Origin: an uncultured Candidatus Saccharibacteria bacterium
GTDB lineage: Bacteria; Patescibacteriota; Minisyncoccia; Phycocordibacterales; PALSA-1337
Length of the DNA: 64,000 nucleotides
Assembly (NCBI GenBank): GCA_964357605.1
Contig: CAYHLX010000001.1
Location: 5,159 to 69,158 of the forward strand
Direction of reading: 5' to 3'
Shown here piece by piece: positions 850 through 51,779 of the stretch (positions are counted from its first letter, which is position 1; each line of letters begins with the position of its first letter). Below the pieces are notes generated by a model. The model was not told where the DNA came from. It saw only the letters and a program-made list of their open reading frames with translations, and ran no database searches. The position numbers and the translations under genes were made by a program.

Positions 850-852
850 TGT

Positions 853-2367: not shown

Positions 2368-2407
2368 TAAACTTATTCGCACCATCTAATGTGATAGAAT
2401 AGTATAA

Positions 2408-5632: not shown

Positions 5633-5651
5633 TAATGTTACAATTACTTCT

Positions 5652-8060
5652 ATGAACTTAGCGACGAAACACTTAACCATCCCTATCCTGGCTATTGTTA
5701 TCCTCCTCACCATCCTTTTCAACCTCGGAGGAACAGAAAAAGATATCTCTACATATTTACCACCTGCTCCCACTCAAACTGCAGCTGTTTCAGATTTCAA
5801 TTCTTCCCTCGTTGCTCACTATACTTTTGATGGTAATACCAACGACTCCGCTGGTTCTAACAATGGGACAGCAGTAGGTGGGCCGACGTATACCACAGGC
5901 AAAATTGGACAAGGACTCAGCTTCGATGGGACAGATGACAAAGTTACGACCTCAGATCTCGGTACTCTAGGATCGTCAGTCTCATTGTCATATTGGTTCA
6001 AAACCACAGATGGGCCAAATTCAGCCATGGTGGGCATCGGCACAAAAAAATATTGCAGTATCGATTGGAGTCCTGCAGGATCATTTGCCTGTACTGTCCA
6101 TGGCGGAGGTGGTGCACTTTCGAGTGGCCAGGCATTCAATGATGGAACATGGCATCATGGAGTGTTTGTTATGACAGAGAATAGTCAACTTATCTATATT
6201 GATGGCGTATTGAAAAATTCATCAAACGGAGAATTACCAGCAGATACTTCGTCCGCTGTTCTTATGGGAGATCGAGCTTTTGGCGGTACACCCTATTCCG
6301 GCGCTCTTGATGATGTACGAATATATAACAAAGCTCTTTCCGCTAATGAAATTCAACAATTGTACACTTTTAATAATGAAAGTACGCCAATAGTAACTCC
6401 GACACCGGATACAAATTCAAATCCAAATCCGACACCACCTCCGACTACAAATCCCGTGCCAGCACCAACCGAACCAATTTCTGTAGACAGCAAACATTAT
6501 TATGTGCGTCCTGATGGCGGAAATTATGGCAACGAAGATGGATCAAGTTGGGCTAATGCCTTTGACGGATTCAATGATGTTGTGTGGGGAAATAATACTG
6601 GCCAGGTCGGTGCAGGAGATGTCCTGTATGTGAGTGCCGGTAACTATTATCAACCACTTATTGTCGGTATATCAGGTGTTTCTGGAAATAGAGTGACAGT
6701 TCGCGCCGCGCAAGATACATATGTTGGAATTGCAAATCTTAATTCCACATCAGCAATAAGTTATGGAGGCAATGCTTATGTAACTATTGATGGAGGTTAC
6801 AATGGAAATAACCATTTTGTAACCACTACATATATTAATGGACAGGGTACTATAGACCCAGGTTTACATTATTTTACCATTAACAAAAATCTTGCCGATT
6901 TTAGATATTCAAGCAAAGGAGAATTTTCGTATAACATTGTTAATATTGTCGATTCAACTGCAGAAACGGCATTTTACTTCACTGCGTCAAAGAATCGTGA
7001 TGCCCCCTCGTTTGGATTATCAAAGTTCCATCATAATAAAATTATAGTACCAGGGAAGATAAATGACGGTAATGGTCCTGACGGTATTCATGCCGGAACA
7101 GGATTTGACATATACAACAACATTTTTCAATCAGTATTATGGACTCCCGGTTCGCTCATAGGTCATAACCACCAGGATCTCATACAGGCTTATGGAGATG
7201 AGCATTTGAGAATTTACAACAATGAATTTATTGACTCTGGTGATTCTCAAATTGATTTCTCTAAAGCAGGAAATGTAACGCAATCTAATTTACTTGTTTA
7301 TAATAACGTCTTTCGAAGGACTATTGCTGAAATGGGTACGGTCATGTTGAGGATATATACAGAAGGCGGGGGAAGCATCTCTTCGTTTAATAATATTATG
7401 ATTGACAATAACACGTTTATAGATGGATCTAGAACAGGTCCTTCCTATGGCGGAGGTATTCGCGTTATTAATACAGACACAGCTACCGGGGCTTCTAATG
7501 CGACAATACGAAATAATATTTTCTACAATTCTGGTCGCGCGTGGCCAGTCGTGTTGATGGAGGGTATATCACCAAACTGGACTGTGTCAAATAATCTAAT
7601 CAACGCTGGATCATCTGGTAATGCAACTATACAGTGGACAGGTATAAATCCTGTAGGCACGCAAACTACCGCACCTAATTTTGTAGGTTATGTTCCATAT
7701 GCGTTAAGTATGGATTTACATTTGAGAAACATGGATAGTGCCGCTATCAATAAAGGAGTCAATCTTTCCTCCCACTTTTCCACAGACAAAGACGGCAACC
7801 ATCGCAATGTTGGCGGTGCCTGGGACATCGGCGCCTACGAATACCAAGGAAGCGGGACAACTCAACCACCAGTCACCCCACCAGTAACACCCACCACCTA
7901 CAAACCAGGCGACTTCAACAGAGATGGAGCAGTCAATGCCCTAGACTTCTCCCTATTGTCAGGTGCCTGGAATACCAATACCTCTACATATGATCTAAAC
8001 AGTGATGGTATTGTGAACTCTCTCGACTACGTGATCATGGTGCAGAATTGGACGGGGTAG
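5652..8060 (+). CDS. Secreted LamG domain - PT-rich linker - right-handed parallel beta-helix (pectate-lyase-like) - C-terminal type I dockerin protein
   Basis: Start re-set to ATG 5652 (MNLATKHLTIPILAIVILL..., a signal/TM segment). The track ORF start at 5496 overlaps the previous gene. LamG motif 'LDDVRIYNKALSANEIQQLY' is followed by a TPTPDTNSNPNPTPPPTTNPVPAPT linker. Repeated NN(I/V)F/YNN.F motifs at beta-helix spacing. The C-terminus 'DFNRDGAVNALDFSLL...DLNSDGIVNSLDYVIMVQNW' is two DxNxDGxVNxxD calcium-loop repeats, i.e. a dockerin. Confidence 0.75.
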   Translation: MNLATKHLTIPILAIVILLTILFNLGGTEKDISTYLPPAPTQTAAVSDFNSSLVAHYTFDGNTNDSAGSNNGTAVGGPTYTTGKIGQGLSFDGTDDKVTTSDLGTLGSSVSLSYWFKTTDGPNSAMVGIGTKKYCSIDWSPAGSFACTVHGGGGALSSGQAFNDGTWHHGVFVMTENSQLIYIDGVLKNSSNGELPADTSSAVLMGDRAFGGTPYSGALDDVRIYNKALSANEIQQLYTFNNESTPIVTPTPDTNSNPNPTPPPTTNPVPAPTEPISVDSKHYYVRPDGGNYGNEDGSSWANAFDGFNDVVWGNNTGQVGAGDVLYVSAGNYYQPLIVGISGVSGNRVTVRAAQDTYVGIANLNSTSAISYGGNAYVTIDGGYNGNNHFVTTTYINGQGTIDPGLHYFTINKNLADFRYSSKGEFSYNIVNIVDSTAETAFYFTASKNRDAPSFGLSKFHHNKIIVPGKINDGNGPDGIHAGTGFDIYNNIFQSVLWTPGSLIGHNHQDLIQAYGDEHLRIYNNEFIDSGDSQIDFSKAGNVTQSNLLVYNNVFRRTIAEMGTVMLRIYTEGGGSISSFNNIMIDNNTFIDGSRTGPSYGGGIRVINTDTATGASNATIRNNIFYNSGRAWPVVLMEGISPNWTVSNNLINAGSSGNATIQWTGINPVGTQTTAPNFVGYVPYALSMDLHLRNMDSAAINKGVNLSSHFSTDKDGNHRNVGGAWDIGAYEYQGSGTTQPPVTPPVTPTTYKPGDFNRDGAVNALDFSLLSGAWNTNTSTYDLNSDGIVNSLDYVIMVQNWTG

Positions 8061-8133
8061 GGGTAACTAACTCTTGCTTTTGGCCCAGGATATGCTATAT
8101 TTGGTGTACTTATTGGTTATTTATAACTAATAT

Positions 8134-8757
8134 ATGAATTATATAGATTTTCAACAAAAGTTTAAGGAGTACCCGCTTATTATGGTTTCCGATATCAAGA
8201 CAGCATTTGCTGATTATGATTCTCGGCGATTGTATGAGTGGCAGAAGGCCGGCTATATCCGCAAGGTGGCTAGGAATTTTTGGTTATTTACAGATCAGCA
8301 GGTGAGTGAAAGTCAGACGTGTTTTATTGCCAACAAGCTTCGTGAGCCATCCTATCTAAGTTTGGAATATGCTCTTGGTACATATGGACTCATTCCAGAA
8401 CAGGTTTTCGTCAAGACATGTATAACAACGAGGGGTCGTGCGACATATGAGACACCTGTCGGGAACTTTAGCTATCGTTCCATGAAAGAGGAACTTTTTT
8501 TCGGCTATCTGCTCCATGGAGAGGGGGCATATGCATATAGGATGGCTTCACCAGAAAAGGCATTGCTGGATTTTCTTTACATGCGTTCAGATATACAGGA
8601 TGAAGGCCACATCGCCGAGCTACGCATTGCCACGGATGTGTATCGTGACAAGATAGATGATGCTCGACTGGATTCATATCTCAAAATATTCAACTCGCCG
8701 ACACTAGAGAATAAGGTGCGTCTTGTTCGTGAATATATACTAGACAACCATGATTAA
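8134..8757 (+). CDS. Putative AbiEi-like antitoxin (type IV toxin-antitoxin system partner of AbiEii)
   Basis: 207-aa protein immediately upstream of, and overlapping by 8 nt, an AbiEii-family nucleotidyltransferase gene. The call rests mainly on this conserved two-gene arrangement plus size. No strong motif was recognised by eye. Confidence 0.5.
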   Translation: MNYIDFQQKFKEYPLIMVSDIKTAFADYDSRRLYEWQKAGYIRKVARNFWLFTDQQVSESQTCFIANKLREPSYLSLEYALGTYGLIPEQVFVKTCITTRGRATYETPVGNFSYRSMKEELFFGYLLHGEGAYAYRMASPEKALLDFLYMRSDIQDEGHIAELRIATDVYRDKIDDARLDSYLKIFNSPTLENKVRLVREYILDNHD

Positions 8758-9524
8758 TCTTACCGAATTACAAAAGCTCTATCCGTACCCGGCAGGGTTT
8801 GACCGTAGTGCACTACGAGAATATTTTCAATACAAGATTATGGATATTCTTTTTAGACAAGGAATTGGAAACAAGCTTTGTTTTCTAGGGGGTACAGCAA
8901 TAAAGTTCTGCTATGGTGGCAGACGGTATTCAGAGGATCTTGATTTTGACAATCGTGGTATTAGTCCTGAAGAATTTGAGGCTTTGGTGGAAACCGTTGG
9001 ACAGGAACTTGGTCGTGAAGGATATCGCGTCGATGTTAGGAATTCTTTCAAGAATGCATTTCGTTCACGAGTGGGCATCGAGGGTGTATATCATGATAAT
9101 GGTTTGAGCCCACTTCCCAATGAAAAGCTAATGATCCAGATCGATATGGCACCGCAGGATTTTGCTTTTGAGCCACAGACATATATGCTACAAAAGTACG
9201 AGGTACTCCGTACGATTGCCGTAGTTCCAGTCCAGACTATTTTATCCCAAAAGGTTGCCGCAGTTATTTATTGGACGCAAGAGAGCTAAGGGTCGTGATT
9301 TCTACGACATCGTCTATCTCCGTGGCTTTACGGAATTTGATTTCTCCTATCTCAAGGATAAGCTTGGTATTGTCGATGTAGTCGAACTCAAAAAAAAACT
9401 TCTCGAAGTCACTGCTGGATTTGATTTTGATGCATTGGCTACCGATGTTATGCCATTTCTCGTTAATCGCGAGGAGGTTGAATATGTGCGCCAGTTTAGA
9501 ACATATATTGAACAGAAATTGTGA
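8750..9524 (+). pseudogene. AbiEii/AbiGii-family nucleotidyltransferase toxin, interrupted by a +1 frameshift around 9255-9290
   Basis: The N-terminal ORF 8750..9289 contains 'LCFLGGTAIKFCYGGRRYSEDLDFD', the AbiEii nucleotidyltransferase signature GGTAL...R.S.DLDF. The conserved C-terminal part 'GRKRAKGRDFYDIVYL...' continues in the +1 frame (ORF 9255..9524, which starts at TTG). The two ORFs overlap by 35 nt. Confidence 0.6.
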
Positions 9525-9599
9525 TCATGGTCCAAAATCGAACGTAATGTTGATAAGTTATAGATACAGTTCTAGACACAATCCTGTATAATAACACCC

Positions 9600-11990
9600 A
9601 TGAACCCCAAGAAATACGTGCTACTCTCTGCACTTGTAGCTGTTATCATTCTCACCATCCTCTTCAACCTCGGAGATATTACATCCAAGGAGATTGTCCA
9701 GTATATCCCACCTATTACCTCCCAATCCCAAACAGCCGCAGTGTCTGACTTCAACTCTAGTTTAGTAGCTCACTATACATTTGATGACACTACCAACGAT
9801 TCTGCAGGATCTAACCACGGTACAGCTGTAGGTGGACCGACGTATACTACTGGCAAGATCGGGAGGGGCTTACAATTTAACAATGATGGTGCGTTTAATA
9901 GCCCGATGCATGTTGTCAGTTCATCTGTTTCCCTCAGCTCTGACTGGTCCGTGTCCTTTTGGGTTTTAAGGATTTCAAATGTCGGGGCGGCTCAATATGC
10001 CGTTTCAATGACTGATGCTACAGGTATACTTGTAAAAGATAGTAGTGGCATTAATAATTGGGGATTTTTTGATGGCACAACAGTTTTAAATGGGTCGGCA
10101 CAGATACCAATACAGAGCTGGACTTTCATAACTGTTACGAAATCGGGAACTACTTATACCCTTTATATAAATGGAGCTTCTGATACTTCTGGTACACTTA
10201 ATGATGTAGATATAAGTAGAATAATGATAGGAGTTAGGTCATCTAATTTTCTTGGGATGCACGGAACACTTGATGACGTTCGCATATATGATCGTGCATT
10301 GAGTGCTGGAGAAGTAAGTCAACTCCATACACTTGGTAGTGGAGGAACTGTCATAGCACCGGATCCAACCCCCACTTCTCAACCAATACCAGTTCCAGAT
10401 CCAGTAGTAGTCACTCCACCTCCAGTTCAACAACAAGTACCACCACCTGTAGTATCTGGTTCGCAAACATACTATATAGACTATGTCTCAGGCAACAATG
10501 CGAACAACGGTACCTCAAAGACTACTCCTTGGAAGGTTCATCCATTCATGAAAGGTTTTACTGGTAGCTATTCACACAAGGCAGGAGACAGATTCATTTT
10601 TAAAGGTGGTGTGACGTGGCCAAACTCATCATTTCAGATGAATATTACCGCCGGTGGAAGCAGTGACAGTGTGCGTGACTATTATGGTGTTGACAAGACT
10701 TGGTATGCCGGTTCCTCGTGGGCTAGACCGGTGTTTGATTTTGAGAATACCCTTATATCCGGTGGCGGTTTTAATTCGGTCGGCCTCCTGATTAATAGTG
10801 CAAACTATATCACAATTGATGAAATAGATTTTGCTAGATACAGAACACCGGCGGTAGGAGCGGGCGACTATGGTTCAGGTACATTAGTCCTCATCGGTTC
10901 ATCCAGTAATATCACCATACAAAATTGTATTGTCCGCGACTGGTCAAATGGTGGTGGTGCCGATGGTGGTTCTGGCGGAGGTATCTGGTCATTTTCAAGT
11001 GGTAGTGGAAACAAAGTCTTGCATTGCATCTTTCATGGCTTTAATACCAATATAAAAGGAGGACGTGCATTATCATTTTATGGTGAGATCGGTTTCAATG
11101 AAGCATATGATTTGAGCACTTTCCTTATGGGTGGAGGCGATGTTCATGATAATTATGTACATAATATGAAAGGTGCCACAGACCCGAATAATCATGAAAA
11201 CGCCTTTTATATAATGGGTGTCAGCAAATTGTACAATAATCTTCTACATGACATTGATCCGGGTAGCTCTTCGTATTATCTAGAACCAGGTTTCTCCAGT
11301 CCATCGGGTACAACAATGGTCTATAATAATGTCGCTTTTAATGTTGGAAATGATGCCCCGATTTCAATCGAGACTGATGGACAGTACGCAGCTTCACAGA
11401 ATATAAAAATTTTCAATAACACTGTTGAACATGGAGTAGGTAATTGTATCCGAACTGTATTGCGCGGAAGCCAACATATTGGCTCGCTTGAAGTCGCTAA
11501 TAATCATTGTATAACTACTGGACCAGCCAAGGATTTTCCTACAGCGACAGTTACAACTCTTACGGACCGGGGTACCGACATAGTTCAGACTCATGCTCAG
11601 GCCGCGTCATCTGGTGCGACTCCTACAAATCGTTACCGGCCGACGTCTGCCAGTTCTCCTGCGATCAATGTTGGGCTATCGCTTCCTAGTTACTTCACGT
11701 CTGACAAATTAGGAGTCGTCCGTCCCCAAAGTACGGTATGGGATGTAGGCGCCTACGAATACCAAGGAAGCGGAACAAATCCTCCTGTAGTCACTCCCCC
11801 CATCACCCCACCAGTAACACCCCCAACCTACAAACCCGGCGACTTCAACAGAGACGGAGCAGTCAATGCCCTAGACTTCTCACTCTTGTCAGGTGCCTGG
11901 AATACCAATACCTCTACATATGATCTAAACAGTGATGGTATTGTGAATACTCTAGACTACGTCATCATGGTGCAGAATTGGACGGGGTAG
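9600..11990 (+). CDS. Secreted LamG - PT/PV linker - beta-helix - dockerin protein (paralog of 5652..8060)
   Basis: N-terminal 'ILTILFNLGDITSKEI...QSQTAAVSDFNSSLVAHYTFDDTTNDSAGSNHGTAVGGPTYTTGKIG' is near-identical to its paralogs. Also 'LDDVRIYDRALSAGEVSQLH', a PVPDPVVVTPPPVQQQVPPPV linker, NN-rich beta-helix repeats, and a C-terminal dockerin 'YKPGDFNRDGAVNALDFSLLSGAWNTNTSTYDLNSDGIVNTLDYVIMVQNWTG'. Confidence 0.75.
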   Translation: MNPKKYVLLSALVAVIILTILFNLGDITSKEIVQYIPPITSQSQTAAVSDFNSSLVAHYTFDDTTNDSAGSNHGTAVGGPTYTTGKIGRGLQFNNDGAFNSPMHVVSSSVSLSSDWSVSFWVLRISNVGAAQYAVSMTDATGILVKDSSGINNWGFFDGTTVLNGSAQIPIQSWTFITVTKSGTTYTLYINGASDTSGTLNDVDISRIMIGVRSSNFLGMHGTLDDVRIYDRALSAGEVSQLHTLGSGGTVIAPDPTPTSQPIPVPDPVVVTPPPVQQQVPPPVVSGSQTYYIDYVSGNNANNGTSKTTPWKVHPFMKGFTGSYSHKAGDRFIFKGGVTWPNSSFQMNITAGGSSDSVRDYYGVDKTWYAGSSWARPVFDFENTLISGGGFNSVGLLINSANYITIDEIDFARYRTPAVGAGDYGSGTLVLIGSSSNITIQNCIVRDWSNGGGADGGSGGGIWSFSSGSGNKVLHCIFHGFNTNIKGGRALSFYGEIGFNEAYDLSTFLMGGGDVHDNYVHNMKGATDPNNHENAFYIMGVSKLYNNLLHDIDPGSSSYYLEPGFSSPSGTTMVYNNVAFNVGNDAPISIETDGQYAASQNIKIFNNTVEHGVGNCIRTVLRGSQHIGSLEVANNHCITTGPAKDFPTATVTTLTDRGTDIVQTHAQAASSGATPTNRYRPTSASSPAINVGLSLPSYFTSDKLGVVRPQSTVWDVGAYEYQGSGTNPPVVTPPITPPVTPPTYKPGDFNRDGAVNALDFSLLSGAWNTNTSTYDLNSDGIVNTLDYVIMVQNWTG

Positions 11991-12006
11991 ATGGGGTAAA
12001 CAGCCA

Positions 12007-12048
12007 AAATCGTGAAAATAGCTTAATTTTATCGGTTTTTCACGATTT
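12007..12048. repeat. Perfect 12-bp inverted repeat (aaatcgtgaaaa ... ttttcacgattt) with about an 18-nt spacer, downstream of the 9600..11990 stop
   Basis: Read directly: 12007-12018 aaatcgtgaaaa and 12037-12048 ttttcacgattt are reverse complements. It could be a terminator/attenuator stem or a protein-binding palindrome. Confidence 0.6.
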
Positions 12049-12052
12049 ACTT

Positions 12053-12074
12053 CATCATGGTGCAGAATTGGACT
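12053..12074 (+). repeat. Orphan copy of the dockerin-gene 3' end (tcatcatggtgcagaattggac) about 60 nt downstream of the intact gene end
   Basis: 22/22 match to the last codons (VIMVQNW) of the dockerin genes ending at 8060, 11990 and 16401, but here it is followed by taactaa rather than ggggtag. Confidence 0.6.
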
Positions 12075-12120
12075 AACTAATGTTGATAAGTTACAGATGG
12101 AATAGTGTATAATAACACCC

Positions 12121-15100
12121 ATGGCCCACCCAAAGACACTTCACAGCATCATCGCACTCATAGCCTGTGCAGGTATCATATTAGCAATTATATTTAGCAC
12201 TAACTCATCACCTGACTCTGTCTCTCTCACCCTCTCACCAGAGAGTAGATCAACTCCAGTCGGAGAAACATTCACTATAGACATAGTCCTCAATACCGCC
12301 AAACAAACAGTATACGGAGTAGACATCAATCGACTACGCTTTGATCCTCGTATTCTAGAGGTAGTTGATATAGATACAGCTACACCAGGAACACAAATAA
12401 CAGCTGGCTCCCTCATGGACGCTACAGTCTTCAACTCTGCTGACAATACTCTCGGTACTATACAGTTCTCTCAAGTCATGACTCCAGGTACCAGTGGAAC
12501 TAACTCATTTACTGGCTCTGGTACTCTCGCTACCGTCACCTTCAAGGTAGTAGCTGAAGGTAAATCAGACATATTCATTGACTTTACCCCTGGCTCAAGT
12601 ACAGCTTCAAATGTCGCTGGACAATCAGGCAATCTCCTATCAGTAGTCAATGGTGGATCATACAAGGGTACACGATCACTTCTCTCAACTATCACTTCTC
12701 AATCTCAAATGGCTGCTGTGGCTGACTTTAACTCTAGTCTCGTTGCTCACTATACTTTTGATGGTAATACCAATGACGGAGCTGGTTCTAACAATGGGAC
12801 TGCAAGTGGTGGACCGACGTATACTACAGGCAAAATTGGACAAGGGCTCAGTCTTGACGGTAGCGATGACAAGATAACTTTTACCGCATTCAATGTACCT
12901 TCAAGCTTTACCATATCAACATGGGTCAACCCTGGGTCAAGTCAATCAAGAGATTGGTCGCAGATTCTAGGGGAAGTTAATACGGGCAGTGGGTTACATT
13001 ATAAAAGAGGGGCAAATAAAATTTCCTATTATTTTTCTGGAGGTGATCATTTGACTAACGGATCTCTAAATGCGGGTCAGTGGCACCATGTTGCTTTGGT
13101 TCAAAACTCTGGTAATTATACGTTTTATATAAATGGTTCTGCTGATGCGAGTGGTACAGGAGGTGTGAGTTTCAATCCTTACATCATAGGTCACAATCAC
13201 TGGGGCGAAACATTTGCCGGTTCACTGGATGACATGCGCATCTACAATCGCGCGCTTGACTCGAGTGAAGTGAGTCAACTCTACGCTCTCGGCAGTGGAG
13301 GTGGTACACCCGCGCCAACACCGGATCCTACGCCTACTCCGATACCAGATCCGACACCAACGCCCAGTCCGACAACCTGTTCTTCCTTTACTTACTCCAG
13401 TTGGGGTACGTGCACAAATAGTACCCAAAGTCGTACCGTGACTTCTTCTTCACCTACTGGTTGTACTGGCGGATCACCGATAACTACTCAGTCTTGTGTG
13501 GTTACAACACCTACTCCGACACCACCTGTAGTAACACCAACACCTTCGCCAATTCCTGGAAACACGACATGTCAGGCAATCAATGGTCATAAGTGCTGGT
13601 ATGTAAATTCTTCAGCGACAGGGTTAAATAATGGTACATCTTGGCAAGATGCATGGAGAAGCTTTGCAGATGTTCAGTTAAAAAATCCCTACCGTGCGTG
13701 CGGCGCGCCTACAGGATGCCTCAATTCTGGGGATACACTCTATATTTCGGGCGGCCCTAGCGGATCCAGCAGAACTTATTCAGGTATTTCTTATACATCC
13801 CCTCAGGGAGTAGGATTTGTTTTTGATGTTGGCCATGAGGAAACTGCAAGGTATGCTACAACTCGTGCAGATGGGATTAAAATAAGGCCAGGACAAGATG
13901 CCGGGCACAATGGCAAAGTGATAATTGATGCCGGAGGGCAGGTAGGAATTGGAGCAAATAATTCTCAATATGTCACAATTGATGGGGAATATAATGGTCA
14001 GAGAAATATCGTTATCAGAAATTCATCTGCCGGAATTACCGTCGTTTCAAGTAATGATGCAATAATTCGCTACGTTGAGATTGATAACGTCTCTTCTATA
14101 GCCATATCGGCAGGACAAACACAAAGAGGAGGTGAAATAGCATACAATTATATCCATCAAGTTCGTGGCGAAGCGGCGATCAACTGCAATGGCACAAACA
14201 ATGAACAAGGAAGTCCCAATCATGGCTATGATAAGATGTTGATTCATCACAATGAAATTCAGCTCAATCGCTGGGATCCCAGTCTGGAACCTTCCAGGAA
14301 TGCTGCAGCTGATGGAATTGGTCCTGATGGAATACAGGGTTGCTATGGCCTGAGCTTCTATAACAATTACATTTATCACAAGCCGGGAATGCTCGCGCCA
14401 CGTTCACAGCATCCGGACATGATCCAATCCGGTGGGGCATACTTGAAAGTATATAATAACGTTTTTGAGAATATGACAGATTCTGCAGTGGATTTTGACT
14501 CACCTTTTGTTGGAAAGGTTAGAATATTCAACAACATATTTAAGTCAACACTCTATACAGGTATACCAAGCGGCATTCGCATGTATTCTTCTGGCACATG
14601 GGGTCCTTTTACAAGCCTAGATGATGTTTATATTCTCAACAATCTTTTTGTTGATACTGGTTATTCTGAACGGGGAGGAAGTCCGATAGGTTTTGGCGCA
14701 GGTTCTGTAACGGCATCAAATATTCACATACTCAACAATATATTCTACAACTCAGGGCATAGTAATTATGGGTCACTCATTAATTCGGCAGCTTCTTCTG
14801 GATTTACTCATTCTGATTTTGATATAGGATACAATCTTGTTGATGCTGGATTGCATGGCACGACTAATATCATTCTTGATGGCACTGCCTTTACACAGCA
14901 TCATCCTCTGAGCGGAAAACCTGCTTGGGTTTCGTATAGTGAAGCTTCACCATCTAATAATTTTAAATTAACGGGATCTGATACATTTGCAATCGATAAG
15001 GGAACAAACTTAACAAACTTGTGCAGTGTGATTGGTCTATCTGAGCTTTGCGCTGACGCAGAAAATAAACCGAGACCTTCTGTCGGAGCATGGGAAATAG

Positions 15101-16401
15101 GAACATACGAATACAACGGCTCTGGCGGAACGCCGACTCCACCTCCAGTAACGCCACCGCCACCGCCACCGCCTTCACCTTTATCCACTTACTACGTTTC
15201 TCCTTCAGGCAATGATTCAAACGCGGGAACATCAGCATCACCATTCCGTACTATCCAAAAAGCCGCTAACATAGTTATTCCTGGAGATACAGTCGTCGTT
15301 AGAAATGGAACATATACTGATACGGATGGAAATAATATCATAGCAACCATCGGTAGGGGCGGTGCGGCTGGAGCACCAGTAACTTTCCGTTCGGAAAATC
15401 CTTTCGGTGCCATATTGAGTGGAAACAATACTGCCGGATTCGGATTTATTTTTGGAAATAATATCAACTATGTCAACATAGAAGGATTTGAAATTAAAGA
15501 TATTGTTGAGGCAGGGATCAACATCAACGAATCAAATTCATATATTACTATTAAGGATAATCGTATTCACCACATTGGTCACATTCAGACACACACACTA
15601 TACGGCATGAGTTGTATTGATGTGGGAAGTAGGGCTCATCATATTACTGTTGCAGGCAATACTATTTATTCCTGCGGAAGGCTGAACCCAAATAATACAA
15701 ACCTTGAAATTCTGGACTCAACCTGTATTACGCCGGTTGGCTATGTCTTTCCTGGAAATGGCATCACATATTCAAAGGAAAACACTTGCTACAACCATGA
15801 TCATGGCATATATGTAAGAGGTGATGATATCAATATTACTAACAATACATTCTACGATATGAAATCTGGTTGGGGAGTGCATGTATATGATGATGCGGCT
15901 CTAAAAGAGCGTATTACTATCACTGGCAACACATTTGCAGATGCCAATCCACAAAGAAACGGCCAGATCATTATCGGTCCACAGACAAGCAATCTGCGTA
16001 TCGAAAGTAATATTTTCTACAATCCATCAGTCTCTGCCATCAGGCTCGGAGACACTTGTGCTGCAGCCGGTCTCACCAGTATCACTATACAGAACAACTC
16101 AACCAACATCGGAGATCTCATCTCAGGAGCCGACGTATCATGCGGGTATACTATCTCCGGCAATCTTCTCAATCAAAATTTCCAATTTGCAAATGAAGCA
16201 GGAAGAGATTATCGTCTCATATCCGGCCAACCTATCGTCAACAAACCAGGCGACTTCAACAGAGACGGAGCAGTCAATGCCCTAGACTTCTCACTCTTGT
16301 CAGGTGCCTGGAATACCAATACCTCTACATATGATCTAAACAGTGATGGTATTGTGAATACTCTAGACTATGTGATCATGGTGCAAAATTGGACGGGGTA
16401 G
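12121..16401 (+). CDS. Giant surface protein: N-terminal cohesin-like domain, LamG domain, PT linkers, Cys-containing module, two right-handed beta-helix regions, C-terminal dockerin
   Basis: Residues about 30-180 ('VSLTLSPESRSTPVGETFTIDIVLNTAKQTVYGVDINRLRFDP...GTIQFSQV...GSGTLATVTFKVVAEGKSDIFIDF') have cohesin-like beta-sandwich features. They are homologous to the N-terminal domains of 21969..23327, 23367..25040 and 25101..25808. LamG 'LDDMRIYNRALDSSEVSQLY'. 'SPFRTIQKAANIVIPGDTVVVRNGTY' is a typical beta-helix cap. The dockerin tail is identical to that of 9600..11990. Confidence 0.7.
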   Translation: MAHPKTLHSIIALIACAGIILAIIFSTNSSPDSVSLTLSPESRSTPVGETFTIDIVLNTAKQTVYGVDINRLRFDPRILEVVDIDTATPGTQITAGSLMDATVFNSADNTLGTIQFSQVMTPGTSGTNSFTGSGTLATVTFKVVAEGKSDIFIDFTPGSSTASNVAGQSGNLLSVVNGGSYKGTRSLLSTITSQSQMAAVADFNSSLVAHYTFDGNTNDGAGSNNGTASGGPTYTTGKIGQGLSLDGSDDKITFTAFNVPSSFTISTWVNPGSSQSRDWSQILGEVNTGSGLHYKRGANKISYYFSGGDHLTNGSLNAGQWHHVALVQNSGNYTFYINGSADASGTGGVSFNPYIIGHNHWGETFAGSLDDMRIYNRALDSSEVSQLYALGSGGGTPAPTPDPTPTPIPDPTPTPSPTTCSSFTYSSWGTCTNSTQSRTVTSSSPTGCTGGSPITTQSCVVTTPTPTPPVVTPTPSPIPGNTTCQAINGHKCWYVNSSATGLNNGTSWQDAWRSFADVQLKNPYRACGAPTGCLNSGDTLYISGGPSGSSRTYSGISYTSPQGVGFVFDVGHEETARYATTRADGIKIRPGQDAGHNGKVIIDAGGQVGIGANNSQYVTIDGEYNGQRNIVIRNSSAGITVVSSNDAIIRYVEIDNVSSIAISAGQTQRGGEIAYNYIHQVRGEAAINCNGTNNEQGSPNHGYDKMLIHHNEIQLNRWDPSLEPSRNAAADGIGPDGIQGCYGLSFYNNYIYHKPGMLAPRSQHPDMIQSGGAYLKVYNNVFENMTDSAVDFDSPFVGKVRIFNNIFKSTLYTGIPSGIRMYSSGTWGPFTSLDDVYILNNLFVDTGYSERGGSPIGFGAGSVTASNIHILNNIFYNSGHSNYGSLINSAASSGFTHSDFDIGYNLVDAGLHGTTNIILDGTAFTQHHPLSGKPAWVSYSEASPSNNFKLTGSDTFAIDKGTNLTNLCSVIGLSELCADAENKPRPSVGAWEIGTYEYNGSGGTPTPPPVTPPPPPPPSPLSTYYVSPSGNDSNAGTSASPFRTIQKAANIVIPGDTVVVRNGTYTDTDGNNIIATIGRGGAAGAPVTFRSENPFGAILSGNNTAGFGFIFGNNINYVNIEGFEIKDIVEAGININESNSYITIKDNRIHHIGHIQTHTLYGMSCIDVGSRAHHITVAGNTIYSCGRLNPNNTNLEILDSTCITPVGYVFPGNGITYSKENTCYNHDHGIYVRGDDINITNNTFYDMKSGWGVHVYDDAALKERITITGNTFADANPQRNGQIIIGPQTSNLRIESNIFYNPSVSAIRLGDTCAAAGLTSITIQNNSTNIGDLISGADVSCGYTISGNLLNQNFQFANEAGRDYRLISGQPIVNKPGDFNRDGAVNALDFSLLSGAWNTNTSTYDLNSDGIVNTLDYVIMVQNWTG
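16377..16401 (+). repeat. Direct repeat copy 1 (the dockerin-gene 3' end catggtgcaaaattggacggggtag) flanking the ATPase gene
   Basis: 24/25 identical to 17743..17767. The two copies bracket the AAA ATPase gene 16532..17725. Confidence 0.7.
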
Positions 16402-16531
16402 GGGTGAAAGTAACTCAAGATGGTAAAAATAGTATTGTAAATTATGTTCAAGAATAAGGGTATTTTAGGTCTTTTTCCTAGATATAAAATTGCACTTTAC
16501 ATCTAGTCAAGATTAATGTAAACTACCATTT

Positions 16532-17725
16532 ATGAATAAAGTATTTTATCCGAGAAAAATATATCCTGAATTAAAGGAACATTTGGAGAGTGATGATGTC
16601 ATGATTATTACTGGCATGCGTCGTACCGGAAAGACTACATTGGTAGAACATATTCTTTCGGAAATAAATTCAAGTAACAAGATATTTTTAGATTTGGAGA
16701 AAATAAGTAATCAGGAAATATTTGGTGATAAAAATTATGATAATGTCATTATTAGTTTAGAACAACAGGGTTTATCTCAGAAGGAAAGAATGTATGTGGC
16801 CTTGGATGAAATCCAGACTATGCCGAACATACCGAGTGTAATCAAATATCTTCATGATCACTATAATATAAAGTTCATTCTTACCGGATCTAGTTCTTAC
16901 TATCTAAAAAATTTATTTACTGAGTCTCTCTCTGGAAGAAAGAAACTTTTTGAACTACATCCTCTGGATTTTGGAGAATTTTTGACTTTCAAAAATGTCT
17001 CATATAAACGACTTGATAGTATAGATTCAGTAGAAACTTTTAATATGCATGAGTATGAAAGACTGAAAGCTTACTATGAAGAATATATTGAGTATGGTGG
17101 TTTTCCAAAAGTTGTACTTGCTCCGTCTGTCAAAGATAAAAAAGATATTCTTGATGATATAATCAGCTCGTACATCAATGTTGATATAAAAAGTATCGCT
17201 GATTTCAAAGATGCTTCAGCAGTTCTCAATATAGCAAAAATGCTGGCGGCCAGGATAGGGGGTAAGCTCGATTATTCCAAATTATCTAGACTGACAGGGC
17301 TCACTCGACCAACGATCGTCAATTATATGTATCTATTTGAACGGACGTATCTCATTTCTCTCATTCCTGTTCATACCAAAAATCCTGATAGAGAAATAGT
17401 TAAGGCTCAAAAAATATATTTTTCGGATAGCGGGCTTGCTGGAATACTTGCTGGTATAGACAGTGGTTCAAAATTTGAAAATACTATTTTCAATCAGCTT
17501 AGACATAAGAGAGAATTAAAGTATTATTCCCTAAAGACTGGCAATGAAATTGATTTTATTGTTGACAAAAAACTAGCATTAGAAGTGAAGGAAACCCCTA
17601 CAGAATTTGACATAAAAAATCTTGCATATTTAGCGGACAAAGCAGGGGTTGTATCTTATAAATTAGTAGGTAGACATCACACTCCCAATTTTTCTAATTA
17701 TATATGGGGTGGAAGTATTTTATGA
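16532..17725 (+). CDS. AAA-family ATPase (AAA_14 + DUF4143-type architecture)
   Basis: Walker A 'ITGMRRTGKTTL'. Overall length and layout are typical of the widespread AAA+DUF4143 'ATP-binding protein' family. It is flanked by direct repeats of the dockerin 3' end. Confidence 0.8.
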   Translation: MNKVFYPRKIYPELKEHLESDDVMIITGMRRTGKTTLVEHILSEINSSNKIFLDLEKISNQEIFGDKNYDNVIISLEQQGLSQKERMYVALDEIQTMPNIPSVIKYLHDHYNIKFILTGSSSYYLKNLFTESLSGRKKLFELHPLDFGEFLTFKNVSYKRLDSIDSVETFNMHEYERLKAYYEEYIEYGGFPKVVLAPSVKDKKDILDDIISSYINVDIKSIADFKDASAVLNIAKMLAARIGGKLDYSKLSRLTGLTRPTIVNYMYLFERTYLISLIPVHTKNPDREIVKAQKIYFSDSGLAGILAGIDSGSKFENTIFNQLRHKRELKYYSLKTGNEIDFIVDKKLALEVKETPTEFDIKNLAYLADKAGVVSYKLVGRHHTPNFSNYIWGGSIL

Positions 17726-17742
17726 CACCAAGACTAGCGTCT

Positions 17743-17767
17743 CATGGTGCAGAATTGGACGGGGTAG
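17743..17767 (+). repeat. Direct repeat copy 2 (catggtgcagaattggacggggtag), an orphan dockerin 3' end with no gene attached
   Basis: Read directly. It encodes ...MVQNWTG* but is not preceded by a dockerin ORF, because it lies 18 nt after the ATPase stop. Confidence 0.7.
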
Positions 17768-17837
17768 AATGGCATCTACACCCTAGGTTATTAACAGAGT
17801 AAACTCCCTGAATTGCATTTTGTGATATCATTAACCC

Positions 17838-20420
17838 ATGAATCTCACCAAAAAACATCTCATAGTAGCGGGGCTTACTATTATTATCATCCTTACCATC
17901 CTCTTTAATCTTGGAGATATTACATCCAAGGAGATTGCACAGTATATCCCACCAAGTAGCTCACAATCCCAGACTGCCGCCGTTTCTGACTTCATCGTCC
18001 ACAATACATTTGATACAGGGACTGTGACCGGTGCTATCGGCCAGGCCACAACATTTGATGGGATTGATGATTATGTGACACTGAGTTCGAGTGGTGTGCC
18101 AGTGGGCAAACAGCCGGTGACTGTGTCGGCTTGGGTCAAGCTTGCTGGTTCTCCTTCTGCTGATAGCAGGATTGTTTTTCGCGGAGAGAGGTATTCGTCA
18201 TCAGATTTTATATTTTTTGATCTAGCTCTCGAAGGGGCAGGACACAATGTGCCGACATTTACCATGATGGGTACCGGAGGAGGAGGTTCACACTACAAGG
18301 CAACTTCAGGAACAGGACTTTCAGCCGGACAGTGGTACCACCTGGTTGGCGTTTCCGATGGAGGAGGCGCAGTGACTGTATATGTAAACAATACTCCTAC
18401 TACCGGAAGCCATATTGATTTCGATGGTCACGATGGAACACCATACGCACCGTCCGTAGGCGCACGGTTGCAAGGCTCCGCGGATTCTTTCTTTGCCGGT
18501 TCGATCGACGACGTTCGTATTTACAACCGCGCACTTGACTCGAGTGAAGTGAGCCAACTCTACGCGCTCGGCAGTGGAGGTGGTACGCCCGCGCCAACGC
18601 CGGATCCTACACCAACCCCGACACCGGATCCAACACCGACACCTTCTGCAGTCAACGGTCAATGTGGTGTAACTGAGAATATTTGTATTCAAGGTACTCT
18701 CAATAATACTGCTGACTCTACTACCAATTATCTTTGGCAATGTACCGGTGCAAATGGTGGCGCAACGGGTTCATGTTCTATTGCAAAACCAGTAAACACC
18801 ATAGTGACCCCACCATCCACTCCAGATCCAGTTACCTTTACAGCACCACCTGTAGTATCCGGTTCGCAAACATACTATATAGACTATGTCTCAGGTAACA
18901 ATGCCAACAACGGCACTTCAAAAAACACCCCATGGAAGGTTCATCCATACATGAAAGGTTTTACCGGAAGCTATTCACACAAGGCTGGAGACAGATTTAT
19001 TTTCAAGGGAGGTGTAACGTGGCCACACTCTGCATTTCAGATGAATATTGCCGCTGGCGGAAGCAGTGACAGTGCGCGTGACTATTATGGTGCTGACAAA
19101 ACTTGGTATGCCGGTTCATCTTGGACCAGACCAGTTTTTGATTTTGAAAACAAAGTCGTAGCACCGGATGCATGGGGTGGAGCAGAGTCAGCAGGGTTGC
19201 TTCTCAGGGATGTTCACTACATCACTCTCGACAATCTGGAGCTGATCCGTTTCCGTCAAAGATTGTTTGAAAAGAATTCCGGCAAGGCTGACCCCGGATT
19301 TGCGGTGGATAATATCACTATACAAGGATCCGCATCCAATATTACACTGCAAAACAGCATTGTGCGTGATTGGACTATACCTACACCCATACCGGCGGGC
19401 TATATAGATGGCGGGGCATCAGGAGGGGTTATCGTTAATGCTTGGTCTGGCGGAGGCACGGGTATAAAAATCCTTAACAATGAATTTCATCAGCAGAATA
19501 CAGGAATCAGATCTGGGGTAGCACTCTATTTGGGTGGAGAGATTGCCTATAACACTATCCACCATGTGTCAGATGCTATCGTCGGTGGTGGTAACGTTCA
19601 TGACAATCTGATCTACAACGTCGAGGATGCCACCTGTCCGGAATTACACGAAGATGTGATCTATATCACATCACCTTCAACGGTTTACAACAACGTTGTC
19701 TATGAAGCTACTGCCGCCGCTCCCGTCTATTACCTTGAACCGAGTCGTTCCGCATCCACTGGAACAACATTGGTGTATAACAATATTTCCTATAATACCG
19801 GGTATGCACCTCTCAGTATAGACATTAGTCAGCCTGAAGGTGTCAATCACGTGATAAAAGTTTACAACAACAGTTTTCATTCCGAAAGTTCTTCGGTGGT
19901 ACGCGTGGTGGATCGTGTCGGTTTACCATTGGGTGTATTGGATATGAAGAATAATCACTTTATTTTCAATGGACAATTCCTCAATATTCCTGCTGGCACA
20001 GTCCTAGACTTTAAGAATACAAATAATATTTTCCACACAGAGTCCGAAGCTGCCCAGTTCGGGGCAACAAGGGCCAACCTATTCAAATTTACTTCGTCTA
20101 ATGCACCAATGATAAACGCCGGTGTAAGTTTGTCGACATTTTTTGCGACTGACAGGCTCGGTGTTGCTCGTCCACAAGGCGGAGCTTGGGATATTGGCGC
20201 CTACGAATATGGTGGAAGCGGAGGATCTGTATGGTCACCACCGCCACCAGCACCAGTTTACAAGCAAGGTGATTTCAACAGGGATGGGCTAGTCAATTCT
20301 CTAGATCTTTCTCTGCTCACATCTGTTTGGAATCAAAATAGTGCCTCATACGATCTGAATTCTGATGGTATCGTAAATAGCTTGGATTATGTGGTTATGA
20401 TTCAGAACTGGACATCGTAA
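17838..20420 (+). CDS. Secreted LamG-like - PT linker - Cys module - beta-helix - dockerin protein (divergent paralog)
   Basis: Same N-terminal leader ('IIILTILFNLGDITSKEIAQYIPPSSSQSQTAAVSDF'). 'IDDVRIYNRALDSSEVSQLYALGSGGGTPAPTPDPTPTPTPDPTPTPS' is near-identical to 12121..16401. The beta-helix core is homologous to 9600..11990 ('SGSQTYYIDYVSGNNANNGTSK.TPWKVHP(F/Y)MKGFTGSYSHKAGDRFIFKGGVTWP'). The dockerin is a variant: 'DFNRDGLVNSLDLSLL...DLNSDGIVNSLDYVVMIQNWTS'. Confidence 0.7.
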   Translation: MNLTKKHLIVAGLTIIIILTILFNLGDITSKEIAQYIPPSSSQSQTAAVSDFIVHNTFDTGTVTGAIGQATTFDGIDDYVTLSSSGVPVGKQPVTVSAWVKLAGSPSADSRIVFRGERYSSSDFIFFDLALEGAGHNVPTFTMMGTGGGGSHYKATSGTGLSAGQWYHLVGVSDGGGAVTVYVNNTPTTGSHIDFDGHDGTPYAPSVGARLQGSADSFFAGSIDDVRIYNRALDSSEVSQLYALGSGGGTPAPTPDPTPTPTPDPTPTPSAVNGQCGVTENICIQGTLNNTADSTTNYLWQCTGANGGATGSCSIAKPVNTIVTPPSTPDPVTFTAPPVVSGSQTYYIDYVSGNNANNGTSKNTPWKVHPYMKGFTGSYSHKAGDRFIFKGGVTWPHSAFQMNIAAGGSSDSARDYYGADKTWYAGSSWTRPVFDFENKVVAPDAWGGAESAGLLLRDVHYITLDNLELIRFRQRLFEKNSGKADPGFAVDNITIQGSASNITLQNSIVRDWTIPTPIPAGYIDGGASGGVIVNAWSGGGTGIKILNNEFHQQNTGIRSGVALYLGGEIAYNTIHHVSDAIVGGGNVHDNLIYNVEDATCPELHEDVIYITSPSTVYNNVVYEATAAAPVYYLEPSRSASTGTTLVYNNISYNTGYAPLSIDISQPEGVNHVIKVYNNSFHSESSSVVRVVDRVGLPLGVLDMKNNHFIFNGQFLNIPAGTVLDFKNTNNIFHTESEAAQFGATRANLFKFTSSNAPMINAGVSLSTFFATDRLGVARPQGGAWDIGAYEYGGSGGSVWSPPPPAPVYKQGDFNRDGLVNSLDLSLLTSVWNQNSASYDLNSDGIVNSLDYVVMIQNWTS

Positions 20421-23366: not shown

Positions 23367-25040
23367 ATGAATCAAACATTAAAAACTTCACACGGTATTG
23401 CGATCCTTGCAATATTATTGATTGTTTCCATAATCTACATCGTAAAAACGGGTAATCAAACTGATGGTATCGCCAAATTTGTTCAACCACAAAGTCAGTT
23501 GGCGCAGGTGACCTCCGCCACGACCCTGTCACTCACCACCGCATCTCCCACTACAGTTGGGAGTACATTTACCGTAAATATTACCCTCAATACCGGTGGG
23601 CGAGCTGTATATGGTGTTGACATCAATCGTTTTCGATTTAACCCTGCCATGCTCCAGGTTGTAGATGCCAACACGGGGACAGCTGGTGTACAGGTTGCCC
23701 CAGGATCTCTCATGGCTATTAGTATCATAAATACTGTAGATAACAGTGCCGGCACAGTCCAATTTTCACAAGTTGCAAATCCAGGGTCTACATTCACTGG
23801 TATAGGTACGGTGGCTTCTGTTACTTTCCGTGTTTTGGCCGTAGGTACGTCAAACGTGACCATTGATTTTAGTCAAGGTAGCGGTACGGATTCTAACGTG
23901 GCCGGACTGGGAGGAGATATACTCACTTCGGTGACAGGAGGTTCATATACGGGTACAGCTGTAGTGGTTGTGCCACCTACACCTCCAGCAGACACAACCG
24001 CCCCTACTATTTCCAACGTTACTTTTTCGGGACTTTCGACTACTGGTATCACCATCGCCTGGACTACTGCCAATGAAAATTCCAATACCCAAGTAGAATA
24101 TGGATTGACAAGTAGTTACGGATCACAGACGGCATTGAATGCATCACTCACATCCGCACATACAGCCACTCTCTCCGGCCTCTCACCAGGCACAGCCCAT
24201 CACTATCGTGTCAGATCTCGCGATGCGGCTGGAAATCTGGCTGTATCTACAGATAATATTTTTACAACCTTGGCGGCGGCTGATAGTACAGCACCTACAG
24301 TGCCTTCCGGTGTTACGGCTACAGCCACAGGGGAGACACAGATCCAATTGTCCTGGACAGCTTCTACTGATCCTGCTGGTACTGGACAAAACGTTTCTGG
24401 TGTCGCAAGATACCAAGTTTTTCGTGGGGGAACACTTCTAGGTACTGCGCCATCGACTGCGTATCTAGATACGGGATTGACTGCGGCGACGGCGTATAGC
24501 TATAGAATAAGTGCTGTTGATACGGCTGGCAATATATCTGGACAATCTACAGCGGTGAGTGCTACGACACGATCAGCTTCTGTTGTAGATATTCCGCTTC
24601 AACGCAAAATAATTTTGTCACTAGAGGGAGCTACAAATACTGGCAAGGCTGTTTCTGGAGTCATCGAGTTTCTAGATCCTGTCACGAGGGCCAAAATATA
24701 TCAGGCAAATATTGTCACCGATGCTTCTGGTCAGTACGTCATGAATATTCCGGCAGGGCTTGTGGCAACTGTTGTGCTACGCCCAAAGATCCCTGGCTAT
24801 ATCTCAAAACTGATCACGGATGTAGATCTGAGAAATACTGCCATACTCGAGGTCAATTCGCCGGTATTACGAGCGGGTGATTTCAATGGTGATCAGATCG
24901 TCAATTCTCTAGACTTCTCATATATGAATAGCAAATGGGGTGCGGCGGCTGATGCCCTGGCTGATATAAACAGGGATGGAGGCGTGAACTCCATAGACTT
25001 TTCATATTTGTCTAGCAACTGGTTAGCGACAGGAGAGTAA
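23367..25040 (+). CDS. Cohesin-like domain - two fibronectin type III domains - C-terminal dockerin; putative adaptor scaffoldin
   Basis: The N-terminal module is homologous to the N-terminus of 12121..16401 ('YGVDINRFRFNPAMLQVVDANTGTAG...GTVQFSQVANPGSTFTGIGTVASVTFRV'). Two FN3-like repeats ('APTISNVTFSGLSTTGITIAWTT...HHYRVRSRDAAGN'; 'APTVPSGVTATATGETQIQLSWTAS...YSYRISAVDTAGN'). C-terminal 'GDFNGDQIVNSLDFSYM...DINRDGGVNSIDFSYLSSNW' is two dockerin calcium-binding repeats. Confidence 0.65.
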   Translation: MNQTLKTSHGIAILAILLIVSIIYIVKTGNQTDGIAKFVQPQSQLAQVTSATTLSLTTASPTTVGSTFTVNITLNTGGRAVYGVDINRFRFNPAMLQVVDANTGTAGVQVAPGSLMAISIINTVDNSAGTVQFSQVANPGSTFTGIGTVASVTFRVLAVGTSNVTIDFSQGSGTDSNVAGLGGDILTSVTGGSYTGTAVVVVPPTPPADTTAPTISNVTFSGLSTTGITIAWTTANENSNTQVEYGLTSSYGSQTALNASLTSAHTATLSGLSPGTAHHYRVRSRDAAGNLAVSTDNIFTTLAAADSTAPTVPSGVTATATGETQIQLSWTASTDPAGTGQNVSGVARYQVFRGGTLLGTAPSTAYLDTGLTAATAYSYRISAVDTAGNISGQSTAVSATTRSASVVDIPLQRKIILSLEGATNTGKAVSGVIEFLDPVTRAKIYQANIVTDASGQYVMNIPAGLVATVVLRPKIPGYISKLITDVDLRNTAILEVNSPVLRAGDFNGDQIVNSLDFSYMNSKWGAAADALADINRDGGVNSIDFSYLSSNWLATGE

Positions 25041-38020: not shown

Positions 38021-38093
38021 GCCACCTTAGCTCAGTTGGTAGAGCATCCGATTTGTAATCGGACGGTCGTCAGTTCAAGTCTGACAGGTGGCT
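38021..38093 (+). tRNA. tRNA-Thr (anticodon TGT)
   Basis: Manual cloverleaf: acceptor gccacct/aggtggc, D stem gctc/gagc, anticodon stem tccga/tcgga with loop ttTGTaa, T stem gtcag/ctgac with loop ttcaagt, 5-nt variable loop. No encoded CCA. Confidence 0.8.
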
Positions 38094-51742: not shown

Positions 51743-51779
51743 AAGGTTTAGATCCTTGGGTCTTTGGACACTTGGATTC

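Follow-up and report, generated by a model that had tools for sequence, protein, structure and literature searches.

How did an ATPase gene come to lie between two copies of the 3′ end of its upstream neighbour, only one of which belongs to a gene? The question is raised by a 64-kb stretch of DNA (64,000 nucleotides, nt; contig CAYHLX010000001.1 of assembly GCA_964357605.1, positions 5,159 to 69,158; here called the window) from an uncultured Candidatus Saccharibacteria bacterium, in which four tandem genes encode LamG/dockerin surface proteins (paralogs 1 to 4) and a gene for an AAA_14/DUF4143 ATPase is placed between the third and the fourth. An earlier note, made from the letters of the window, had pointed to the two repeats and to dockerin gene ends as recombination handles; here, the locus is compared with related ones, all of which, like the window itself, are metagenome assemblies.

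We propose, at a probability of about 0.58 that applies to the account as a whole, that the foreign-looking ATPase cassette was acquired horizontally and that single-gene defence cassettes of this kind are gained, lost and relocated through homology, by means of a mimic of the target gene's end that the cassette itself carries. The evidence for this reading consists of an insertion polymorphism, a repeat variant shared by two sites, an architecture with several kinds of cargo, the same footprint at unrelated genes, and gene ends that evolve in concert.

Orphan gene ends in the dockerin array

The 25-mer CATGGTGCAAAATTGGACGGGGTAG at positions 16377-16401 is the genuine 3′ end of the open reading frame (ORF) 12121..16401, that is, of paralog 3, and its consensus version CATGGTGCAGAATTGGACGGGGTAG recurs at 17743-17767 with 24/25 identity, just as the earlier note had reported. 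The same 25-mer also closes the ORFs 5496..8060 and 9600..11990 (paralogs 1 and 2), which brings the matches in the window to 4, as compared to 0.00 expected from 100 shuffles. No ORF is attached to the copy at 17743-17767 (orphan D), again in agreement with the note, and its homology to the gene end extends further back than described there, in weaker form, to position 17731 (AGACTAGCGTCTCATGG versus AGACTATGTGATCATGG, 87% over 38 nt), which is 5 nt past the ATPase stop codon (17723-17725). Beyond 17731 no homology to the gene end was detected and none reaches into upstream coding sequence, as a partial gene duplication covering that sequence would have it. The further orphan claimed at 12053..12074 is real and slightly longer (orphan B, ~12050-12078, with 22 nt exact at 12052-12073), and a third, degenerate one that had been overlooked (orphan A, 9523-9549) lies at the stop codon of AbiEii.

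Behind paralogs 1 to 3 the layout is the same: real gene end, cargo, ORF-less gene-end copy, intergenic region, next paralog. The AbiE pair after the first dockerin gene, which the earlier note had mentioned, shares this layout with the ATPase. The note's more general claim that every dockerin paralog is followed by cargo does not hold, as paralog 2 is followed by a 59-nt remnant only, and no cargo stands behind either paralog 4 (17838..20420) or another dockerin gene at 23367..25040. The elements of the array are as follows.

5496..8060, + strand: dockerin paralog 1 (LamG_3 and Dockerin_1); its last 37 nt (8024-8060) are a gene-end repeat copy, and its true start is probably downstream of the listed TTG
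8061..9522, + strand: AbiE cassette, with AbiEi at 8134..8757 and AbiEii at 8750..9524
9523..9549, + strand: orphan A, a degenerate dockerin-end copy GTGATCATGGTCCAAAATCGAAC--GTAA, followed by the ancestral intergenic sequence TGTTGATAAGTTATAGAT...TGTATAATAACACCC and then by paralog 2
9600..11990, + strand: dockerin paralog 2, closing with a 37-nt copy of the gene-end repeat (11954-11990)
11991..12049, + strand: 59-nt cassette remnant, the leader left over from a Fic cassette; the cargo gene, present in the intact cassette of a related genome, is deleted here
12050..12078, + strand: orphan B, a gene-end copy CTTCATCATGGTGCAGAATTGGAC followed by TAACTAA, then an intergenic region as after orphan A, then paralog 3
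12121..16401, + strand: dockerin paralog 3 (cohesin, LamG_3, beta-helix, Dockerin_1)
16365..16401, + strand: left repeat, the functional 3′ end of paralog 3
16402..17730, + strand: ATPase cassette of 1.33 kb, with the ORF 16532..17725
17731..17767, + strand: orphan D, the right repeat, AGACTAGCGTCTCATGGTGCAGAATTGGACGGGGTAG, with an out-of-frame left part AGACTAGCGTC
17768..17837, + strand: ancestral intergenic region between paralogs 3 and 4, 96% identical to the sequence after the paralog 3 stop at the empty site of the related genome
17838..20420, + strand: dockerin paralog 4, with a diverged dockerin end (67%) and neither cargo nor orphan after it

The 59-nt remnant holds a 12-bp inverted repeat (AAATCGTGAAAA / TTTTCACGATTT), and the downstream sides of orphans A and B have a promoter-like sequence in common (TGTTGATAAGTTAyAGAT...TGTATAATAACACCC-ATG). 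Directly after the real dockerin stops there is, in addition, a mini-copy of the stop region (8061-8067, 11991-12001 and 16402-16407), reading TAG followed by GGGTAAC, by ATGGGGTAAAC and by GGGTGAAAG, respectively; these mini-copies at the cassette starts may be a trace of earlier imprecise junctions.

An array of this kind could also arise without any mobility, if the orphans were trimmed former paralogs or partial duplications left behind as the array rearranged by unequal crossing-over. The tandem order with near-identical 3′ modules is compatible with such a history, as are the promoter-like region of a normal paralog junction after orphans A and B and the decay of cassettes by deletion that is visible in the 59-nt remnant. 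It would, however, require at least three deletions independent of one another, all of which would have had to stop 27-45 nt short of a stop codon and immediately behind the stop of a cargo gene, and it does not fit the failure of the homology to extend into upstream coding sequence or the foreign composition of the cassette (GC content of the ATPase segment 32%, as compared to 44-47% in the flanking genes). We consider this history improbable.

The arrangement of the window is found at 99.9-100% identity in three independent Hainich groundwater assemblies (L001, L013 and L002). Otherwise, a scan of metagenome contigs for the repeat returned just the same Hainich organism and chance matches, and in a scan of genome contigs 6/7 matched stretches were due to chance or came from a single related metagenome-assembled genome (MAG).

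An empty site and a relocated cassette in a related genome

A scan of one genome per species led to one relative, the Candidatus Saccharibacteria MAG CAZRRZ010000004.1. Its ortholog of paralog 3 is 93.7% identical and ends in a single gene end, ...GGACGGGGTAA; this is followed by AATTGCACCTACACCCTAGGTTATTAACAG..., the sequence that stands after orphan D in the window, and then by paralog 4 (90% identical). The junction between paralogs 3 and 4 in the MAG is an empty site with one repeat copy, and a dockerin gene running directly into the next paralog, as the earlier note had envisaged for related genomes, does exist.

The same ATPase cassette is present in the MAG behind a different dockerin gene, with 97.1% identity over the coding sequence and 97.7% over the leader, and is more conserved between the two genomes than the flanking genes (90-94%). 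It ends in the same aberrant, out-of-frame variant of the right repeat (CACCAAGACTAGCGTCTCATGG), and the left part of orphan D, AGACTAGCGTC, is identical at both cassette locations. Since one and the same variant occurs at two sites, the right repeat is part of the cassette and not remade from the target each time. The earlier note had left a choice between insertion with target duplication and entry through the conserved dockerin end: insertion stands, and so does the dockerin end as recombination handle, as the same cassette with the same repeat variant is found behind a different dockerin gene of the MAG; for the dockerin array, the right repeat, which travels with the cassette, speaks against a target-site duplication made de novo.

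The dockerin ends themselves bear the marks of exchange. Over the last ~150-165 nt, paralogs 1, 2 and 3 and the MAG paralog X are 87-100% identical, and identity falls abruptly to <50% upstream (modules compared: 7866-8060, 11796-11990, 16207-16401 and the MAG paralogs), with paralog 4 outside this conversion group at 67%. The high identity with its sharp upstream drop points to ongoing homologous exchange among the gene ends. Paralog 3 of the window and its MAG ortholog agree to 87-90% over the last ~60 nt (7 differences in 72 nt) and to 97-100% further upstream, which suggests that the end of paralog 3 was replaced or imported together with the cassette. Whether the dockerin module as such travels along with the cassette could not be detected, the ends being homogenised to 93-98% in all pairs.

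In the MAG, the ATPase cassette is followed downstream by a Fic cassette (PF02661; PADLOC PDC-S04/SoFic), which has orphan D′ on one side and an orphan of its own, ~45 nt long, on the other. The 59-nt remnant of the window matches the first 45 nt of the leader of this Fic cassette. Comparison of the intact Fic cassette with the remnant implies that cassettes are arranged in tandem, that their decay proceeds through internal deletion and that relatives have different ones. Copies of the shared leader, which precedes Fic in the MAG and an ATPase in the locus L016 and is the sole leftover in the window, are found at 12003-12048 of the window, at 2650-2711 of L003 (the MAG Fic cassette) and at ~4335-4405 of L016. 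The motif AAAA[T/C]CGTGAAAA occurs there three times, twice in direct and once in inverted orientation, and overlaps a promoter-like site TTGACA-17-TATACT; the leader resembles a promoter under operator control that is retained when the cargo is swapped or deleted.

The third kind of cargo, the AbiE pair, is a candidate type IV toxin-antitoxin system recognised by matches to AbiEi (E = 5e-61) and AbiEii (E = 4e-50). In the window, a tandem duplication of 4 nt (TTAT) near 9264 (~9264-9267) shifts the frame of AbiEii, which is intact (256 amino acids, aa) on the Hainich contig L036, sampled at the same place; the frameshift represents either a strain-level inactivation of the toxin or an assembly variant. 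By annotation, all of the cargo (PDC-S01, to which the ATPase belongs, AbiE and Fic) consists of known or candidate defence genes.

Chimeric joins at the repeats need to be considered, given repeated gene ends, data that come entirely from metagenome assemblies and a co-assembled MAG whose contig ends inside a dockerin module. However, both junctions of the window are borne out by four independent Hainich contigs, the exact repeat of only 15-25 nt is below typical assembly k-mers, the MAG differs by 3-10% throughout and hence represents an independent genome, and the case of ksgA described below is found on 13-18 contigs from different samples. An assembly artefact is accordingly a most improbable explanation.

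The ATPase and the same footprint at other genes

The ATPase combines AAA_14 (PF13173, 1.6e-30) with DUF4143 (PF13635, 2e-24) and matches PDLC04787, the model of the PADLOC candidate PDC-S01, with E = 1.6e-61. Its Walker A, Walker B and D...E-V-K motifs (the last of the form D...E-x-K) are intact, and its predicted structure (predicted local distance difference test score, pLDDT, 78) resembled only ORC/Cdc6/RFC and STAND ATPases in a structure search. The window and MAG copies of the gene differ at 23 synonymous and 11 nonsynonymous codons, which indicates purifying selection. DUF4143/COG1373 has been placed in the PD-(D/E)XK superfamily (PMC3424549) and PDC-S01 is an abundant, experimentally unvalidated defence candidate (PMC12988326); we found no literature report of gene-end repeats around it. 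Judged by its domains, the protein would be a candidate anti-phage ATPase-nuclease with a putative role in defence. Searches of viral contigs with the ATPase, both as a single protein and as an 18-sequence profile, gave no relatives and those of a phage collection only matches of <30% identity, so that there is no sign of a phage vector.

Upstream of the gene, the cassette contains a promoter-like sequence TTTACA-17-TAAACT (16496-16524). It belongs to a conserved region of ~90 nt (16470-16531 in the window) that also forms the leaders of the ATPase genes in the loci L016, L017, L018 and L019 and in which an 11-bp inverted repeat, CCAAATGTAA..TTTACATTTGG (CTAGATATAAA..TTTACATCTAG in the window), surrounds the promoter-like site. 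This region is probably an autoregulatory operator for the winged helix-turn-helix (wHTH) domain of the ATPase.

The closest homologues of the ATPase (60-84% identical) are patescibacterial, and some of them lie in the same kind of footprint at other genes. In L019, an ATPase (76% identical) stands behind the single-copy gene ksgA (16S rRNA dimethyltransferase), and 12 nt past the ATPase stop there is a copy of the ksgA end of ~45 nt, 31 nt of which are exact. Three loci with conserved synteny (L023, L024 and L025, KsgA 79-80% identical) have no ATPase at ksgA, and their gene end and intergenic region, ...GGAAATAATTAG / AATCATTGGTATAATTTC, match the orphan side of L019, ...GGAAATAATTAG / GTTTATTGATATAATTTC; the functional ksgA copy of L019 ends differently, in GGAAATCCATAA. 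Such a footprint at a single-copy gene, with clean empty sites in relatives, likewise speaks against former paralogs trimmed without any mobility. In L023, the UvrD-like helicase gene upstream of ksgA (462-3488) moreover carries an intein (PF14890 Intein_splicing), with 1008 aa as compared to 647 aa elsewhere.

In L016, a second ATPase lies between ~92-nt copies of the end of the gene upstream, which are ~85% identical; L017 is empty at the orthologous position. The repeats end at the stop codon in the dockerin genes (37 nt), at most 6 nt from it in ksgA (~45 nt) and 5 nt past it in L016 (~92 nt), and no core motif common to the three was seen by eye. A scan of every ORF in the window and in the fetched loci for orphan gene ends returned only the dockerin genes, ksgA, L016 and the variable and template repeats of a diversity-generating retroelement (DGR). 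The footprint is recurrent, though neither universal nor bound to dockerin genes.

Since all three base-resolved pairs of filled and empty sites involve the ATPase family, the gene could itself be a minimal mobile element whose product cuts gene ends with a long stagger, or otherwise promotes insertion, and mobilises AbiE and Fic in trans. The cassette boundaries, which hug the ATPase promoter and stop, would agree with this, as would the intact motifs of a protein assigned to the PD-(D/E)XK superfamily. On the other hand, the repeat length varies (37, 45 and 92 nt), terminal inverted repeats are absent, mismatches between the copies of the repeat are concentrated at one end and not randomly spread, and the same decayed right repeat at two sites was not made de novo. 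In addition, most ATPase sites (5/8) lack a repeat, the predicted fold is that of ORC/Cdc6/RFC and STAND proteins and not of transposases or integrases, and the family is annotated as a candidate defence gene (PMC12988326). We therefore give little credence to a self-mobile ATPase.

Routes of movement, known systems and implications

Essentially every ORF of at least 100 aa in the 64-kb window was scanned against Pfam, as were the flanking ORFs of the related loci, and no recombinase, integrase or transposase emerged, so that the search for an associated recombinase proposed in the earlier note came back empty. No terminal inverted repeats were found at the ends of the ATPase or AbiE cassettes and no RNA family matched in Rfam. 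The left repeat, orphan A and their flanks fold as DNA no better than shuffles (z +0.2 to +1.75), and orphan D forms only a 9-bp hairpin (z ~ -2). The absence of a recombinase, of an attC-like fold, of terminal inverted repeats and of a common core, together with the differing lengths, makes an integron, a transposon with fixed duplication and a single site-specific enzyme disfavoured. Specifically, a transposon or insertion sequence with target duplication is disfavoured for want of a transposase domain and of terminal inverted repeats, because the repeats measure 37, 45 and 92 nt, and because the decayed right repeat occurs at two sites. An integron is disfavoured for lack of IntI/attI in the sequences scanned and of an attC-like fold, and because the cassettes have promoters of their own (TTTACA-17-TAAACT for the ATPase, TTGACA-17-TATACT for Fic). 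The integron-like logic of the earlier note survives as a cassette logic, without the integrase, the attC-like structure and the promoterless cassettes.

The only genes of nuclease or reverse-transcriptase type in the window are both >20 kb away. One is a free-standing HNH endonuclease ORF (38153..38584) directly downstream of tRNA-Thr (38021-38094). The other is the reverse transcriptase (RVT_1, 52556..53548) of the DGR at 50975-53548, whose variable repeat (51621-51724) lies at the 3′ end of the ORF 50975..51736 and whose template repeat is at 52016-52119; the core mismatches are all from template A to variable G/C, and the reverse transcriptase is followed by a Bro-N protein (53603..54427).

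Under the reading favoured here, the segment 16402-17730 would have landed exactly at the 3′ end of paralog 3, with a partly decayed mimic of the last ~37 nt of the gene at the distal end of the cassette; because the cassette brings this mimic along, it would, once inserted, be bracketed by direct repeats. ATPase, AbiE and Fic cassettes would move between the 3′ ends of the tandem paralogs by recombination across the repeat, most likely through homologous recombination or gene conversion by the host and less likely through a recombinase encoded by a cassette. The left crossover would fall into the ~150-nt dockerin module, which provides a long arm, and the right one between the orphan of 25-37 nt and the recipient gene end. 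Alternatively, recombination between the flanking repeats may free a circle, in which the end of orphan D (...GACTAGCGTCTCATGGTGCAGAATTGGACGGGGTAG, at 17767) would meet the cassette start (GGGTGAAAGTAACTC..., at 16402), followed by re-entry of the Campbell type. Saccharibacteria take up DNA by natural competence and incorporate it through homologous recombination (PMC10633639). The enzymology, that is, a RecA-type or a site-specific reaction, and the making of the first gene-end duplication can only be conjectured from these features.

Several points weigh against this reading. The base-precise empty dockerin site comes from only one related genome, a co-assembled MAG, and no circular intermediate or within-population empty allele was seen. 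Of the eight distinct ATPase sites compared, five lack a flanking repeat (the main copy of L016, L018, L026, L032 and L034; L017 is uninformative in this regard, as its contig ends). A right arm of 25-37 nt comes close to the minimum length for RecA-dependent recombination, and homology cannot explain how a gene-end mimic was first gained, for example, at the single-copy ksgA. Finally, in none of the cases is the repeat boundary more than ~6 nt away from the host stop codon, which is the classical signature of integrase att sites at 3′ ends.

This last point leads to the main rival, namely that the cassettes are integrase-less derivatives resembling cis-mobilizable elements (CIMEs) and are moved in trans by a recombinase encoded elsewhere, be it in the genome, on a phage or on a plasmid. 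The gene end would then be attB, the orphan and the gene end of a filled site would be attR and attL, and the tandem arrangement would result from accretion. The repeats run to the target stop (boundaries at -6, 0 and +5 nt) as at classical 3′-end att sites; the ksgA orphan keeps the ancestral end (AATTAG and the ancestral intergenic region) and the functional copy has a new one (CCATAA), as expected of a 3′ end supplied by an element; a small hairpin (z ~ -2) lies at the boundary of orphan D; and tandem cassettes split by repeat copies are reminiscent of the ssrA islands of Dehalococcoides (PMC3146451) and of CIME accretion (PMC5704250). Against it stand the absence of a tyrosine or serine recombinase from the window and from every fetched locus, where neither an integrase-bearing member nor a trans-acting integrase was seen, repeats of 37, 45 and 92 nt without a common core, which one enzyme would not fit, orphans that decay freely, and homologous exchange among the gene ends, for which there is strong evidence of an independent kind. 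On balance, movement in trans appears unlikely, though it deserves serious attention. A more far-reaching idea, which we regard as quite doubtful, is that Saccharibacteria, or perhaps Patescibacteria, have a dedicated cassette-capture system with gene-end mimics as attachment sites for single-gene defence cassettes, served by an unrecognised activity, possibly that of a PDC-S01 protein that mobilises itself instead of, or besides, acting in defence.

Regardless of the route, the nearest analogues, as far as the architecture can be compared, are integrase-less islets with att repeats at the 3′ end of a target gene, such as CIMEs and the Dehalococcoides ssrA islands. There, too, the repeats correspond to the 3′ end of the target and stop where the gene does, and empty sites occur in related strains (PMC3146451, PMC5704250); tandem cargo of low GC content is split by repeats and many units lack integration genes. 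The ssrA islands form tandem series in which a 20-bp copy of the ssrA end divides one island from the next, and roughly half of them are without integration genes (PMC3146451), and CIMEs are formed by accretion (PMC5704250). In contrast, the units described here are single genes or gene pairs of 1-1.5 kb with no integrase-bearing member, their targets are protein-coding (dockerin paralogs, ksgA and one unnamed gene) with unrelated repeats of different lengths, and the paralogous targets evolve in concert, which offers a homology route and several equivalent sites.

Integron arrays are similar in that co-oriented, compact cassettes each end just past their ORF in a repeat copy, that the cargo is rich in toxin-antitoxin and defence genes and that the content differs between close relatives. 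They differ in that the repeat here is the end of a coding gene and not an imperfect palindrome folding as single-stranded DNA, and in that the cassettes are interleaved with large host genes. The orphan modules of rhs and cdiA loci provide a further parallel. In these, a main-gene fragment without an ORF lies downstream and serves as homology handle for exchange, with the array recording displacement; the fragment is followed by an alternative C-terminal toxin tip together with the immunity gene. The likeness consists in a conserved piece of the main gene recurring downstream without an ORF. At the dockerin genes, however, the fragment is the extreme 3′ end, no part of the protein is swapped and the cargo is an independent gene. 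The likeness to PDC-S01 (AAA_14 and DUF4143; COG1373), with its shared domains and ORC/Cdc6-like AAA+ fold, concerns the cargo protein and not the repeat architecture.

Little is understood of how Patescibacteria, with their tiny genomes and scarcity of recognisable mobile elements, come by accessory genes. The present locus offers a base-resolved case of gene gain, with filled, empty and relocated states in close relatives and no integrase found. Surface-protein paralogs with a concerted 3′ module would act as a landing pad with multiple sites, on which an array of defence cassettes may be built by homology, and PDC-S01, among the commonest candidate "defence" genes, behaves here as mobile cargo. 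The footprint lends itself to tests in naturally transformable, genetically tractable strains of Saccharibacteria. If the footprint is general, an orphan copy of the last 25-90 nt of the upstream gene would provide a search rule for recent acquisitions.

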